Source of the DNA: a virus | Taxonomy: Duplodnaviria; Heunggongvirae; Uroviricota; Caudoviricetes | Virus record (IMG/VR): IMGVR_UViG_2778261420_000023 | Direction: 5' to 3' (one strand) | Length of the DNA: 14,121 nt | Part shown: positions 1-12,870 of the stretch, piece by piece | How the letters are laid out: every line of letters begins with the position of its first letter | How positions within the stretch are numbered: position 1 is the first letter of the stretch | Program-made: the position numbers and the translations under genes | Notes under the pieces: model-generated | Seen by the model: the letters and a program-made list of their open reading frames with translations, nothing else | Told to the model about the DNA's origin: nothing | Databases searched by the model: none

Positions 1-30
1 ACACCCACTCTATTTAAATACCGTCTTTTT

Positions 31-75
31 GTCACTGTGTGTCACTGGTTGTCACTCTCCGTCACGGTATGTCAC
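31..75. repeat. Five direct GTCAC repeats at exact 10-bp spacing (starts 31, 41, 51, 61, 71), just downstream of the last minus-strand gene
   Basis: Read directly: gtcactgtgt / gtcactggtt / gtcactctcc / gtcacggtat / gtcacc. One copy per helical turn suggests a protein-binding array. Confidence 0.6.
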
Positions 76-5222: not shown

Positions 5223-6368
5223 TTACTTGCCAGCCTGAATTTCCAGAATCTTGATGGCGTTCGAATCCACCACACCACCGCCCAGATATTTCTGGGTATA
5301 GATGTTAATGAATCCAGGCTCGCTGAAATCCGGACGGGTACGCGTACCGGTTTTATGGTCAACGATGAAATAACCGCGCTTAAAGTCACCGACTGCAATC
5401 ACACCGTCTGGCATAAATTCCAGATATTCAACCGGAAGCCCCAGCAGAGAATCAGGATCACCAGCCTGTAAACGATCGCGCCAGATGTAATCACCAGTGG
5501 CATTTTTCAGTTTTTGTGCGGAGGCGGCTGTATTTGAGTTCATCACCCATACAGCTTTTTTGCGGTACTTATTGCGCAGCGTAAATTTCAGGTCAATCAG
5601 CATATCGGCGCTGAGACTGCCAGTCACTTTTTTCGTCTGGAGCGTACCGAAAGGACGGGTTTTGTCATTATCCGTAGCGCGCGGGAAAGTCAGGAAACCT
5701 TTGGCTTTTTTCTCGCCATCACCGGAAACCAGATCCGTTTCTTCGGTATCAACGAAAGTGTCGCCAATTTCAGAAGATAACCAGCCCATAATATCGACTT
5801 CGGAAAAATCGATAATTTCCTGAGTGGTTTTCGGGTAAGCGTAGATCGGATACAGGCGGATACTGACTTCATTCAGTTTTGGGGTTGCCGTCTGGTTACG
5901 TGCCGCACCTTCTTCGCCGTGTCCCACGACCGCACCCCCGGCAGAAACCAGTTGCTTAAATTCATTACTGTGAATGGTTTTAACAGTACAGATTTTACGC
6001 ATCACCGACTCATCAGAAAGCTGACGCATAATTTCTCTGTTCAGTTCCGGGATAACCGTATAACCACCATCTGCCGGAACACTGCCGGACAGGTTGCGGG
6101 TTTCCCCGGTCAGAATGTAAGAGCGTAGCTCATTTTTGGTGATTTTATCTTCGACGGGAACACCAGGCTGGTTACGTTCTTCATCAGCCACAGACTCGAG
6201 GCGGGAAATTTCTGTGTCGAGGGAATCGGCTTTTGCACGCAGTTCATCAAACTGTTTGCCTTCGTCATCGGTTAGACTGCGGTTTTCACTGTCGGCTTTT
6301 TCCAGCAGGGATCGCATCTGGTTTTTCAGGGCGGTTTTTTGCTGGCGGAGTTCGATTAATTTCTTCAT
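5223..6368 (-). CDS. Major capsid protein (HK97 fold) with N-terminal delta/scaffold-like domain
   Basis: 381 aa; coiled-coil-like N-terminus (ELRQQKTALKNQMRSLLEKAD...ELRAKADSLDTEISRLESV) followed by a body typical of HK97-family capsids. ATG at 6368. Confidence 0.88.
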   Translation of the reverse strand: MKKLIELRQQKTALKNQMRSLLEKADSENRSLTDDEGKQFDELRAKADSLDTEISRLESVADEERNQPGVPVEDKITKNELRSYILTGETRNLSGSVPADGGYTVIPELNREIMRQLSDESVMRKICTVKTIHSNEFKQLVSAGGAVVGHGEEGAARNQTATPKLNEVSIRLYPIYAYPKTTQEIIDFSEVDIMGWLSSEIGDTFVDTEETDLVSGDGEKKAKGFLTFPRATDNDKTRPFGTLQTKKVTGSLSADMLIDLKFTLRNKYRKKAVWVMNSNTAASAQKLKNATGDYIWRDRLQAGDPDSLLGLPVEYLEFMPDGVIAVGDFKRGYFIVDHKTGTRTRPDFSEPGFINIYTQKYLGGGVVDSNAIKILEIQAGK

Positions 6369-6562
6369 GAAGGTTTTCTCGCATTGGTTAAGATTCAGGA
6401 CGTGAAACCAACACGGGGGGAGCGCCGCCCGACACTCTCGGCATCTCGCAGATCAACCCGGCATCGCGCAGGGGGTCAGGCGGCATTGTGGCGGCTCACG
6501 TCTGAGTGCCACACGCCAACATATACATAAAAATCAGTATGTAAACATCAACCAGAATCACC

Positions 6563-6589
6563 GAACAACCTGGAACAACCACGAACAAA
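6563..6589. promoter_or_regulatory. Three GAACAAC repeats at 10-bp spacing (TTGTTC on the coding strand) upstream of the capsid operon
   Basis: gaacaac at 6563-6569 and 6573-6579, gaacaaa at 6583-6589. On the minus strand they lie between the upstream terminator and the capsid start, beside a weak promoter-like stretch; candidate activator sites. Confidence 0.5.
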
Positions 6590-6603
6590 TAATTTACAAA
6601 ACC

Positions 6604-6630
6604 TGAAAAAAGACCCGGAAAAAATCCGGG
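6604..6630 (-). terminator. Rho-independent terminator separating the replication/regulation module from the capsid operon
   Basis: Minus-strand RNA: CCCGGA-UUUUU-UCCGGG hairpin (6614-6630) followed by UCUUUUUU (6604-6611); 12 nt downstream of the stop of gene 6642..6890. Confidence 0.6.
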
Positions 6631-6641
6631 CCTTTATCGCT

Positions 6642-7885: not shown

Positions 7886-7949
7886 GCTGTCTGTTCTCCG
7901 GTTTTAACGTTGATTGTTACGCTTGTTTACACCCTTACGGTGAAATTCT

Positions 7950-8072
7950 GCGGGTTATAATCGCACTTTTGCGGGTTATAACTGCCGTTTTGCGGGTTAC
8001 GTGCGGGTTATTGATTTCCTTTTTATTCATGCAGTTAATGCACTTATACACAGGATAACCCGCATAACCCGC
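7950..8072. repeat. Candidate replication origin: four direct GCGGGTTA iterons, an AT-rich spacer and two inverted copies
   Basis: Direct copies start at 7950, 7971, 7992 and 8003 (21/21/11-bp spacing); AT-rich 8011-8050; inverted ATAACCCGC at 8055-8063 and 8064-8072. Immediately 3' of the primase/helicase gene. Confidence 0.6.
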
Positions 8073-8095
8073 AACTTTTTACATCACACAGGGGG

Positions 8096-10990: not shown

Positions 10991-11192
10991 GTCTCACCCC
11001 CTGAATATTCGCGTTAATCATTCCGGCACGTTCTGCGAGTTCCTGTAATGATTCCCTTGTTGCGACAATGGCTTCATCTGGCAGGTGGTAATTACACACC
11101 ACGCGACCTTTATCCACATTGACCAGTAGCTGCCCGGTAAATTTCTCACGAAACTGAACGCGGTTAAGGTCGGTAAGTGACAGGTTAATCAT
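10980..11192 (-). CDS. Hypothetical small protein
   Basis: Start placed at ATG 11192 (MINLSLTDLN...), preceded by GGGGGAAG SD; 8-nt overlap (ATGATTAA) with the upstream ORF stop. Confidence 0.45.
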   Translation of the reverse strand: MINLSLTDLNRVQFREKFTGQLLVNVDKGRVVCNYHLPDEAIVATRESLQELAERAGMINANIQGVRHVQ

Positions 11193-11388
11193 GGTCTTCC
11201 CCCTGGCGAATACGGGCAGCAAATACCATCACGCAGCCATCAGGAGATTGCTGACGCGCTTCCTGTTCGCTGGTGGCCTCAATGGTAATCACGCGCGGTT
11301 GTGCCGTGCTCAGGGCGATAAAACGCCAGATGTATTTATTCAGGTTGTACGAGTCCCGCCCTTGCGGGTGTCTGGTATAATTTCTCAT
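11185..11388 (-). CDS. Hypothetical small protein, first gene of the leftward operon
   Basis: 67-aa C-terminal segment of the long track ORF, starting at ATG 11388 with GAGG SD 6-7 nt upstream; the rest of the 370-aa ORF is judged spurious. Confidence 0.35.
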   Translation of the reverse strand: MRNYTRHPQGRDSYNLNKYIWRFIALSTAQPRVITIEATSEQEARQQSPDGCVMVFAARIRQGEDHD

Positions 11389-11464
11389 AGCTGCCTCGAT
11401 ACGCTTTCTATCGTTGGTGGTTAGACGCCCTGCATGTGTGCCACCACTGCGGGGCGTTGTTGTT

Positions 11465-11514
11465 TGGTGCATTGCACCATTCGGTTTTAACCTATCAATA
11501 AGTGAATCGCACTT
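11465..11514. promoter_or_regulatory. Palindromic operator-like sites in the divergent control region
   Basis: TGGTGCA-T-TGCACCA (11465-11479) and AAGTG-AATCG-CACTT (11500-11514); the core TGAATCGCAC recurs at 11548-11557 overlapping a TATACT -10-like hexamer (11543-11548) upstream of the plus-strand RHH gene. Confidence 0.5.
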
Positions 11515-11578
11515 CAAGCCTTTCTCTGAAATTTTTTTTGTGTATACTGAATCGCACCAACTTAGAGAGGATTCAGTA

Positions 11579-11758
11579 ATGGCAACAGGTTCAACAAATA
11601 ATAAGTCGCAACAGTTAAATGCCAGATTCCCGCATGATGTTGTTGCAGACTTAGAAAAAAATTTAGATGAAGGTGAAAGCAAGGCGCAATTTATAGTTAC
11701 TGCCGTTAAAGGTGAGATCAAACGCCGCCAGCGCCGCAAGGCCAAAGAGCAGGAGTAA
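11579..11758 (+). CDS. Small ribbon-helix-helix-like DNA-binding protein (candidate repressor/switch protein)
   Basis: 59 aa (MATGSTNNKSQQLNARFPHDVVADLEKNLDEGESKAQFIVTAVKGEIKRRQRRKAKEQE): beta-strand-then-helices pattern typical of Arc/MetJ/CopG proteins, basic tail. ATG at 11579 with GAGAGG SD 8 nt upstream. One of only two plus-strand genes called. Confidence 0.5.
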   Translation: MATGSTNNKSQQLNARFPHDVVADLEKNLDEGESKAQFIVTAVKGEIKRRQRRKAKEQE

Positions 11759-11815
11759 CCATCACCAGCGCCGTGGTGTAAGGTATTACGGCGCATTGCT
11801 ATGCAGGACAACACA

Positions 11816-11989
11816 ATGACCGATAAAGAATTGACCAAAACATTATCACCGACACGGAAAAGACGGCGCAGAAAGATAGAGCATGAATCAGAAAGATTCG
11901 CGCCATGTGCTTTTGCCCTTGAGCAATTCCTTAAAGAGTACAGGGAAAAGCGCTCATTGCAGGTATGGCAACGAACTGAACCAGACTGA
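11816..11989 (+). CDS. Hypothetical small basic protein
   Basis: 57 aa from ATG 11816 (AGGA 8 nt upstream), downstream of the RHH gene and upstream of a plus-strand terminator; no motif recognised. Confidence 0.3.
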   Translation: MTDKELTKTLSPTRKRRRRKIEHESERFAPCAFALEQFLKEYREKRSLQVWQRTEPD

Positions 11990-12055
11990 TTGCATTGCCC
12001 ACCAGCCGCAAATGTGGCATTGTTGGTGATGCTTTTGTTTTCCCTTGTTCCCACT

Positions 12056-12085
12056 GGCGACCCTTTTGCGGTCGCCTTTGTTTTG
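12056..12085 (+). terminator. Rho-independent terminator of the short plus-strand unit
   Basis: GGCGACC-cttttgc-GGTCGCC stem-loop (12056-12076) followed by TTTGTTTTG. Confidence 0.55.
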
Positions 12086-12122
12086 CCTGTTATCCGGCAA
12101 TAGTGGCGCTTCACCACACGGT

Positions 12123-12208
12123 TGATATAATTCCCCTGCACTGATCCATTTTTTTCGCAGCAGGTTAATTGTTCAGAAAGGCGGTTCCTTATCGGGGCCG
12201 CTTTTTTT
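12123..12208 (+). ncRNA. Candidate small RNA unit: extended -10 promoter plus intrinsic terminator with no ORF between
   Basis: TGATATAAT at 12123-12131 matches extended -10 consensus TGnTATAAT; an 8-bp-stem hairpin (12181-12201, two G.U pairs) is followed by seven T (12202-12208). Predicted transcript about 70 nt, antisense to read-through from alpA. Confidence 0.3.
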
Positions 12209-12349
12209 ATGCCTGAAAATACCCGATAACATGGCTTTTTAGTTTCACCAGGACGAACGAAGCCCCGCCCCTGTTCGGGCGTATATCCAGTATTCATGGT
12301 TAGATCTCTGTGTTAGTGGATGGGTGGCGGCGGTGCGCCGCCAGCCTGA

Positions 12350-12553
12350 TTAGTGAACTGCCTCGCGGCTGTCCTTCCATGCCAGAACTTCGGATAAAGA
12401 CCAGCCAACGGAACGACCGCCGAGTTTACGCCGTGATGGGAATTGTCCAGTCTTCTCCAGGCGATACCGACATGAGCGGCTCAGGCCTGTAAGTTGCTGA
12501 CATTCTTTTTCACGTATAAAGCGATCAGCGCTTAACACTATTGCCTCCGTCAT
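12350..12553 (-). CDS. alpA: AlpA-family transcriptional regulator / excisionase-like protein
   Basis: 67 aa; LTGLSRSCRYRLEKTGQFPSRRKLGGRSVGWSLSEVLAWK matches the AlpA helix-turn-helix signature (TGLSRSTIYRL..G.FP....LG.R.VGW...E...W). Confidence 0.85.
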   Translation of the reverse strand: MTEAIVLSADRFIREKECQQLTGLSRSCRYRLEKTGQFPSRRKLGGRSVGWSLSEVLAWKDSREAVH

Positions 12554-12600: not shown

Positions 12601-12810
12601 AGAGTGATGAATGGCAAATATTGGTGACGGTCGTTTTACAGATATGGGGTAATTAGAATAAAAATACTTTTAATTCATTGTGATGTAGTAGCGTAAAATT
12701 TTGCTTTTACGCCTTTTTTACATATTTTTAAGAGTGATTCGCCAGTGTATAAAAAAACAGTATACATATAAAAATCAAATGGTTATGAATGAGTTTGATT
12801 TTTAATCCGC

Positions 12811-12870
12811 TTGTCCCATTTTGTTCCTTGTTGTTCGTCGTTGTGTCTCGTTGTTCCACGTTGTGTCCGT
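12811..12870. repeat. Six tandem degenerate 10-bp units (TTGTYCNNNN) just 3' of the integrase stop
   Basis: ttgtcccatt / ttgttccttg / ttgttcgtcg / ttgtgtctcg / ttgttccacg / ttgtgtccgt, exact 10-bp register. Confidence 0.6.

Follow-up and report, generated by a model that had tools for sequence, protein, structure and literature searches.

A helically phased repeat array ahead of the capsid operon of a capsid-forming PICI, and AlpA as its candidate binding protein

The window and the region ahead of its capsid operon

Capsid-forming PICIs (cf-PICIs) make their own capsids and are transferred between species. The window, by which is meant the whole stretch of 14,121 nucleotides analysed here, has a gene order matching that of a cf-PICI, namely int, alpA, a DUF927 rep gene and SSB, then the genes from capsid to TerL (the reference order being taken from bioRxiv 10.1101/2022.09.08.507074), and every real gene lies on the minus strand. 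In transcription order, alpA is followed by a DUF4222 gene, rep, SSB, a ProQ/FinO-family gene and an 82-aa ORF; beyond the major capsid gene the capsid operon continues with prohead protease, portal, connector, HNH, TerS and TerL, ending at 372. The genes to which the argument refers most often are:

14121-12892, minus strand: int, first gene in transcription order
12350-12553, minus strand: alpA, 67 aa, Pfam Phage_AlpA PF05930 (E = 3e-18), a predicted excisionase-like winged helix-turn-helix protein and the proposed binder of the repeats
10219-8096, minus strand: rep, DUF927 primase/helicase-like
5223-6368, minus strand: major capsid protein gene, which opens the operon that the array precedes

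A close relative is the island at locus L002, located within yifB in E. coli O169:H41; the window is 99.5% identical to it over 11.5 kb (94% in the int-alpA part), and the 273-bp spacer ahead of the capsid gene (6369-6641) is identical in the two. Since the window stops at the int start codon, all evidence concerning the att arms comes from relatives. A 370-aa minus-strand ORF at 11185-12297, for which there is no Pfam match, is probably not a real gene; it covers a stretch annotated in relatives as a pseudogene fragment, an Icd-like gene and a divergent YlcI/YnfO-family gene (window 11414-11758, plus strand).

Read in the direction of transcription, the region of interest comprises the stop codon of the 82-aa ORF, a terminator, the element TTGTAAATTA, three repeat units, a 17-nt spacer and the -35 hexamer; downstream of the -10 hexamer comes a GC-rich leader of about 150 nt and then the capsid ATG. 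The individual features are:

6606-6635, minus strand: intrinsic terminator, an 11-bp hairpin (6635-6625 / 6619-6609) and U run, closing the replication/accessory module
6590-6599, minus strand: TTGTAAATTA, nearly invariant, at the 5' edge of the packaging module
6563-6589, minus strand: three 10-bp-phased units, TTTGTTC (6589-6583), GTTGTTC (6579-6573) and GTTGTTC (6569-6563), the proposed AlpA array
6518-6545, minus strand: predicted sigma-70 promoter of the capsid/packaging operon, -35 TTTACA (6545-6540), 16 nt, -10 TATGTT (6523-6518)
6488-6512, minus strand: highly conserved hairpin GTGGCACTCAGACGTGAGCCGCCAC, where the transcript of the capsid operon is predicted to begin

On the plus strand the repeats are seen as exact copies of GAACAAC at 6563-6569 and 6573-6579 and as GAACAAA at 6583-6589, with start-to-start distances of exactly 10 bp; because all the genes are on the minus strand, the motif in the direction of transcription is (T/G)TTGTTC. 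The initial annotation had reported three copies spaced 10 bp apart, and this is borne out (GAACAAC twice and GAACAAA, starting at 6563, 6573 and 6583). It had, however, treated the array as a triplet only, whereas the three units are preceded by the universally conserved TTGTAAATTA (6599-6590), which contains TTGT at 6599, 11 bp upstream of unit 1, and which may be a fourth (TTGT) unit or else a site for some common factor; a check by eye against the consensus sequences of the host factors Fis, IHF, Lrp, CpxR and OmpR gave no convincing match.

The likelihood of such an arrangement arising fortuitously was assessed by counting any 7-mer triple at 10-bp spacing, defined as one exact pair together with a further copy having at most one mismatch. 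Such triples occur at three places in the window (30-56, 6562-6589 and 12838-12865) and in 0 of 300 dinucleotide-preserving shuffles, while at periods of 8, 9, 11, 12 and 13 bp the window contains none. The GAACAAC triple is not due to chance.

A separate 10-bp-phased array is present downstream of the last gene, at 30-76 on the plus strand, and consists of three to four copies of TGTCACT (minus strand: AGTGACA). With 0 of 300 shuffles yielding such a triple, it is no more likely to be a product of chance than the GAACAAC repeats, and it also occurs at 18160-18206 in L092, a classical PICI with the same int and alpA.

That an intrinsic terminator ends the replication module, as had been proposed earlier, holds good: the minus-strand RNA from 6645 to 6596 folds with a predicted energy of -21.6 kcal/mol (z = -5.3), and the hairpin also appears in the inverted-repeat listing (as I8), though a simple pattern scan for terminators missed it. 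On the minus strand downstream of the repeats there is one sigma-70-like site, matching at 9 of 12 hexamer positions (5/6 in the -35 and 4/6 in the -10). A promoter described beforehand as weak is thus found where it was expected, but its strength would appear to be moderate rather than very weak; the core promoter of this island may be moderate to fairly good and, because its -35 is good, may not strictly need an activator. Many relatives have a terminator T run (TTTTCT) in place of the -35. Taking the predicted transcription start at about 6511, the array extends from about -52 to -78, with the units centred at approximately -55, -65 and -75.

Among some 40 distinct cf-PICI leaders the flanking sequence varies, but the hairpin GTGGCACTCAGACGTGAGCCGCCAC is almost unchanged, and compensatory variants (GTGACACTCCGACGGGAGCCGTCAC in L087, GTGGTGCCAGGACGCTGGGGCCAC in loci of the L001 type) preserve its GACG loop; an Rfam search of the window, this hairpin included, returned zero matches. 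Further into the leader, the minus-strand sequence GGGCGGCGCTCC (6430-6419) is identical at 10 of 12 positions to the lambda cohesive-end sequence GGGCGGCGACCT, which is itself found intact in L092 at about 17060-17071.

Conservation of the element among related islands

The spacer is matched in 523 E. coli genomes, and in some 390 of these the match is limited to window positions 6558/6563-6619, that is, to the repeat block, the flanks being different. A profile scan of IMG/VR viral contigs yielded 80 cf-PICI loci with capsid identities of 67-99% (a scan of genome contigs using the capsid protein alone had given one close relative only), and these loci were aligned on TGTAAAT. Upstream of TGTAAAT the sequences of different loci are unrelated, and TTGTAAAT(TA) is nearly invariant; likewise, TTGTAAATTA is present in almost all loci despite the unrelated sequence upstream of the element. 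The layout of TTGTAAAT, three 10-bp-phased units and then a -10 hexamer is found in the roughly 80 related islands and in the E. coli loci, and persists although both the flanks and the units themselves differ.

The block in the form seen in the window is conserved in about 25 related loci, and in the others variant units occur in the same phase. The blocks can be grouped into types, of which type A is TTTGTTCgtgGTTGTTCcagGTTGTTC, type B TTTGTACtcaTGTTTACccgTGATTACccc and type C TTTGTTCtccTGTTTTCgctGCTGTTTgcg, and further types exist. What is common to all of them is no more than a degenerate T-x-T-(G/T)-T-(T/A)-C at 10-bp phase, yet within any one block the units share a common flavour (xTAC in type B, xTTC in other types), as would be expected of a site read by a sequence-specific protein. 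The units are followed either by a TTTACA or TTTACT -35 or, in many types, by a terminator hairpin with its T run at the -35 position. The distance from TGTAAAT to the -10 (TATCTT or TATGTT) is 75-76 nt in 48 of 49 distinct sequences, which implies that array and promoter are locked in their relative positions and that the array is a marker of the packaging module's 5' edge. The initial annotation saw here the layout of an activator-dependent late promoter, and an array held at a fixed distance from a conserved -10 in some 50 distinct sequences lends support to that suggestion. The element occurs also in islands having unrelated replication genes, namely a RepA helicase in L003 and a primase in L004.

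In L005 (3950-3990) and in many loci of types B, E and G, an intrinsic terminator hairpin lies between the phased units and the -10; changes in its stem are compensatory between loci, and its T run takes the place of the -35. In loci of these types the stop codon of the upstream gene abuts TTGTAAAT, and the array is there transcribed as 3' UTR.

Related arrays near alpA and at the island ends

The motif had been said to recur near alpA, and an array is indeed found there, but it has six units and is inverted relative to the capsid block:

12809-12868, minus strand: six-unit 10-bp-phased array in the int-alpA spacer, inverted: GGACACAAC, GGAACAAC, GACACAAC, CGAACAAC, GGAACAAA, GGGACAAG

It lies about 250-320 bp from the alpA start codon, and a corresponding six-unit array is present in the classical PICI EcCICFT073 (L095, 24185-24244). 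In L001 and L025, which are EcCIEDL933-like, 24 of 27 bases are shared between the capsid block and the inverted int-alpA array, and in L031 the capsid block agrees with an island-end array, again at 24 of 27, as against about 17 of 27 for unrelated block types. When second copies of each island's own capsid block were sought by ungapped search, significant copies were found only for islands with an AlpA of class I, the LTGLSRSCRY form.

In L029 (AlpA allele LTGVCRTTRY) a TTGTTC-type triple is situated directly downstream of alpA, at -5601 from the capsid start, which suggests that the alpA-proximal array is mobile in position. The int-alpA spacer of the window also contains, at 12691-12712 on the plus strand, a terminator-like hairpin with a T run, whose stem differences in L001 are compensatory; it may give rise to a small antisense or immunity RNA, or terminate transcription in both directions.

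At the island ends, TTGTTC-type arrays directly adjoin doubled 12-bp repeats of arm type on both arms in L002, L001, L092 (the classical PICI of strain 042) and L095. The end arrays of L002 are at 16860-16905 and about 2055-2090. Just upstream of int, in the direction of transcription, L002 has CTTGTTCcagCTTGTTCcacGTTGTACcccCTTGTGCaat, then 4 bp, then GGTGTAGTCACT GGTGTAGTCATT; at the far end it has TTGTGTCtaTTTGTTCcacGTTGTTTc followed by GGTGTAGTTACT GGTGTAGTCATT, and in the circular form the att core AATAGCGGAT sits between the two arrangements. The doubled repeats consist of two co-oriented copies of GGTGTAGTCAYT on each arm, at 16834-16857 and 2019-2042 in L002 and at 22884-22907 and 34104-34127 in L095. 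Co-oriented doubled repeats of 10-12 bp are found at the ends of many of the islands and fall into seven sequence classes; they are natural candidates for integrase arm-type sites. They resemble the "doubled motif" of HE-PICI attP sites, described as unique to those elements (PMC10111431), and the likeness implies that this architecture is more widespread. TTGTTC arrays are found, in addition, 6-8 kb from att, at two promoter-proximal places.

A position matrix derived from the capsid-promoter blocks alone was used to score phased triples in the approximately 40 nt upstream of each doubled repeat. By this measure 83% of 46 distinct arm windows exceed the 99th percentile of the background, and Mann-Whitney comparisons gave p ~5e-29 against random windows and 6e-27 against AT-rich windows; relatedness among the sequences means that these values overstate independence, yet the effect is a large one. 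Scanning whole loci with the phased matrix is noisy, and gave a false positive within the coding sequence of the YlcI/YnfO gene.

The flavour of the island-end arrays follows the class of AlpA. Taking the best match within a 20-nt window between att-arm arrays and capsid blocks, the results were as follows:

Att-arm arrays, AlpA LTGLSRSCRY / LTGVCRTTRY: best blocks A/A', 15-18 of 20; blocks B-E, 10-13
Att-arm arrays, AlpA LTGICRTTRY: best blocks V/H/S, 14-17
Att-arm arrays, AlpA ITSLSRSSRW: best block E, 18; blocks Q/B/C, 14-15

Matches within a class are 15-18 of 20, as against 10-13 of 20 between classes. Clustering of the island proteins by all-against-all BLAST revealed no allele that tracks block type A or B perfectly, the best partial associations with type A being those of the Int and AlpA alleles. 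For type C, one small upstream ORF is present in 8 of 9 loci and in 0 of 55 others, but this is not independent evidence, because those islands share most of their genes. The GTTGTTC block (type A) is paired with at least three other int/alpA modules (L014-L020, L015, L018). In L018, L019 and L038 a type A block occurs together with an AlpA of class II, the ITSLSRSSRW form, or with att-arm arrays of class II type, and these mosaics represent either relaxed specificity or mismatched combinations. In the classical PICIs L092 and L095, which have the same AlpA, the array is absent ahead of the late genes.

Candidate binders and comparison with known systems

AlpA is the sole excisionase-like protein of the island. 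Its closest solved structure is the GIsul2 transposon excisionase (PDB 8c3t, sequence E = 7e-7), which is also the best match to its predicted fold (TM 0.73/0.84), the RdfS and TorI excisionases being among the further matches; the predicted fold is excisionase-like. Factors of this type recognise directly repeated sites that are separated by one helical turn, at promoters as well as at att sites (PMC7498355). The AlpA of PICIs is needed for excision and for expression of the PICI lytic genes (PMC6092414, PMC11773190). The helix-turn-helix of the EcCICFT073 AlpA is identical to that encoded in the window, and in EcCICFT073 plasmid-supplied AlpA activates a reporter carrying the alpA promoter region (PMC6092414, whose available text omits the limits of the fragment and leaves it unstated whether int was absent). 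For EcCIEDL933, overexpression of alpA has been used to drive reproduction for particle purification (bioRxiv 10.1101/2025.02.11.637232).

What has to be accounted for is the repeats, their phasing, conservation and fixed spacing to the promoter, and their recurrence at three other places. Three properties that might be looked for in an array of the excisionase class were found, namely helical phasing, co-location with arm-type repeats (in the relatives) and a cognate excisionase-like protein. The interpretation we favour, to which we would give a somewhat better than even chance of being correct, is that the triplet together with TTGTAAATTA is a head-to-tail array of predicted AlpA binding sites, acting as an upstream activating array; both that AlpA is the binder and that its binding activates transcription we infer. 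On this basis, helper-phage induction would raise the level of AlpA, which would assemble into oligomers along the phased sites, whose centres lie near -55, -65 and -75 (and -85), and from there activate the sigma-70 promoter of the capsid/packaging operon, the upstream terminator presumably insulating the operon from transcription originating further upstream. AlpA would also occupy the related arrays that adjoin the arm-type sites of the integrase at either end of the island, leading to excision, and the array in the int-alpA spacer, leading to auto-activation. With AlpA at all of these arrays, a single regulator would couple excision, its own amplification and capsid production, and this is what we propose. 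It had been suggested at the outset that one regulator, possibly AlpA, controls both excision/regulation and capsid expression, and the presence of the motif in the int-alpA spacer of EcCICFT073 and at both island ends speaks in favour of that suggestion.

A more ambitious version, which must be regarded as distinctly tentative, is that a portable late-switch cassette, independent of the helper, is made up of TTGTAAAT, the phased array, the -10 at its fixed distance and the invariant 5' hairpin, and that this cassette would define the 5' edge of the cf-PICI packaging module. AlpA would then read four arrays in each island (on both att arms, in its own upstream region and at the capsid promoter), timing excision, self-amplification and capsid synthesis, and co-evolution of AlpA alleles with array flavours would determine which packaging modules islands can exchange. 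The searchable literature yielded no account of how the packaging operon of cf-PICIs is turned on, and no description of AlpA sites in PICIs or of a cf-PICI capsid promoter. If the units are indeed AlpA boxes, they would constitute a concrete and easily tested cis-element for the cf-PICI late switch and a consensus for locating AlpA targets in other islands; they would explain how one small protein can co-ordinate excision with capsid production, and they would show which piece of the promoter to keep or alter when engineering PICIs as delivery vehicles.

It is possible, though unlikely, that the array is a regulatory site for some other protein, such as the divergently encoded, ribbon-helix-helix-like YlcI/YnfO protein, another small protein of the island, a protein of the helper phage, or a response regulator of the host that recognises direct repeats at 10-bp spacing. 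Phased direct repeats are recognised by ribbon-helix-helix proteins and by regulators of the OmpR family as well; moreover, a YlcI/YnfO gene is annotated in L001-L004, L092 and L095, and the type A block occurs with several AlpA alleles. However, members of the motif family adjoin the arm-type repeats of both att arms, the flavour of an array goes with the class of AlpA, and no protein allele associates better with the blocks than those of AlpA or Int. In EcCICFT073, furthermore, the motif is found in the int-alpA spacer, and the alpA promoter region is activated by AlpA in a reporter (PMC6092414), while the use of alpA overexpression to drive EcCIEDL933 reproduction (10.1101/2025.02.11.637232) argues against a factor supplied by the helper alone.

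Somewhat less probable again is that the units matter only as DNA and have no dedicated protein, being either a curved, T-phased UP-like element or a junction for recombinational exchange of modules. The fact that the block types share only a degenerate 10-bp-phased pattern would suit this, as would the position of the element exactly at a module boundary, with unrelated sequence upstream, and the existence of mosaic combinations. It would not explain why the block and distant arrays in the same island are near-identical (24/27), why the similarity to att-arm arrays is class-specific, why the enrichment beside arm-type repeats holds against AT-rich controls, or why units share a flavour within a block (xTAC in type B, xTTC in the others).

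The units could alternatively be arm-type sites for the integrase, recognised by the arm-binding domain at the N terminus of Int and mediating Int-dependent regulation or recombination, a reading we consider quite improbable. We know of no role for arm sites 6-8 kb from the core and ahead of a capsid promoter, and this counts against it. It is true that Int has an Arm-DNA-bind_3 domain, that there are arrays on both att arms, and that the Int allele associates with type A about equally as well as does AlpA. The doubled 12-bp repeats, of which there are two per arm, making four co-oriented half-sites, are nevertheless a better fit to arm sites; they differ between integrase classes, whereas the TTGTTC arrays are retained, and the int-alpA spacer has an array but lacks the doubled motif. 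Covariation with the integrase together with confinement to the att arms, as expected of an arm-type motif, is not the pattern of the TTGTTC arrays. As to published work, PMC10111431 leaves open what binds the repeats at PICI attP sites, which leaves room for Int, but the alpA promoter region responds to plasmid-supplied AlpA (PMC6092414).

Very little probability attaches to the idea of a cosB-like array for the small terminase of the island, associated with a cos site in the GC-rich leader. Small terminases do bind repeated sites, the element is tied to the packaging module, and GGGCGGCGCTCC in the leader resembles a lambda cohesive end; but the motif family occurs also at att arms and in the int-alpA spacer, including those of classical PICIs without this terminase, and the fixed spacing is to the promoter -10. 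In HNH-dependent cos phages, moreover, the cos site lies next to terS.

Finally, that the units are replication iterons, forming a second cis-replication region like P4 crr and bound by the DUF927 primase/helicase, is almost certainly wrong and was rejected: the occurrence of one short repeat in two widely separated sets, one being next to an AT-rich stretch, does recall P4 ori/crr, but the window has an origin directly after rep at about 7945-8075 (GCGGGTTAT twice, an AT-rich spacer and TAACCCGC four times) whose iterons differ in sequence from GAACAAC, islands with unrelated replication genes (L003, L004) keep the capsid-promoter element, and a second set of origin iterons was found elsewhere in L002.

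Returning to AlpA as the predicted binder, several known systems bear comparison. The type I iterons of P4 ori/crr, like those of PICI origins, are also short phased direct repeats at two distant places in a satellite. In the present island the iterons TAACCCGC/GCGGGTTA flank an AT-rich spacer after rep, the GAACAAC units being a separate family; since the Rep iterons (TAACCCGC) differ in sequence, the GAACAAC array is not an origin. The organisation at 7945-8075 matches that of Gram-negative PICI origins as described in PMC6092414. At the far end of the L002 island (2308-2460), beyond the limits of the window, there is a second set of origin iterons, three and three around an AT-rich stretch, and the two origin-like regions of L002 recall P4 ori/crr.

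The AlpA of P. aeruginosa shares its name with the protein considered here and, in common with lambdoid Q, likewise turns on a late or lysis operon. It acts, however, at a single 6-bp site, GGGACG, between -35 and -10, with a sigma-dependent pause and a downstream terminator (PMC9371919). In the window the order in the direction of transcription is terminator, array, -35, and the protein has 67 aa; antitermination of this type was rejected, the protein being a different and larger one and the site geometry different.

A further comparison is with excisionases that bind co-operatively and head-to-tail on phased repeats, as lambda Xis does at X1-X1.5-X2 between arm site and core. To our knowledge, lambda Xis does not activate a late operon. 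RdfS of ICEMlSymR7A, also of excisionase type, binds phased repeats in the same co-operative, head-to-tail fashion as is proposed here (PMC11963761). The present arrays differ from those of both proteins in lying on both arms.

Some excisionases are also transcription regulators. P2 Cox activates the P4 PLL promoter from upstream sites. Both P2 Cox and Apl of coliphage 186 are, like AlpA, small winged-helix proteins that bind direct repeats spaced by one turn at att and at promoters (PMC7498355, PMC3936717), but the AlpA family (PF05930) and the motif are different, the present target is a satellite's operon for capsid and packaging, each element having four arrays, and Apl mainly represses, unlike the activation proposed for AlpA. 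Auto-activation by the AlpA of EcCICFT073 involves an identical helix-turn-helix and the same six-unit GAACAAC-type int-alpA array, and AlpA is required there for induction (PMC6092414); in contrast to the window, however, the lambda-like late genes of EcCICFT073 are not preceded by an array of this kind.

Among the dual-function excisionases compared, the closest by analogy would seem to be Vis of satellite P4, whose part in both excision and late-promoter modulation was reportedly the subject of studies by Polo in 1996 and Cali in 2004. Vis is an AlpA homologue encoded next to int, is essential for excision and modulates the late promoters PLL and Psid (PMC6092414). The P4 late promoters differ in depending chiefly on activators of the Ogr/Delta type, and P4 is without a capsid gene of its own.
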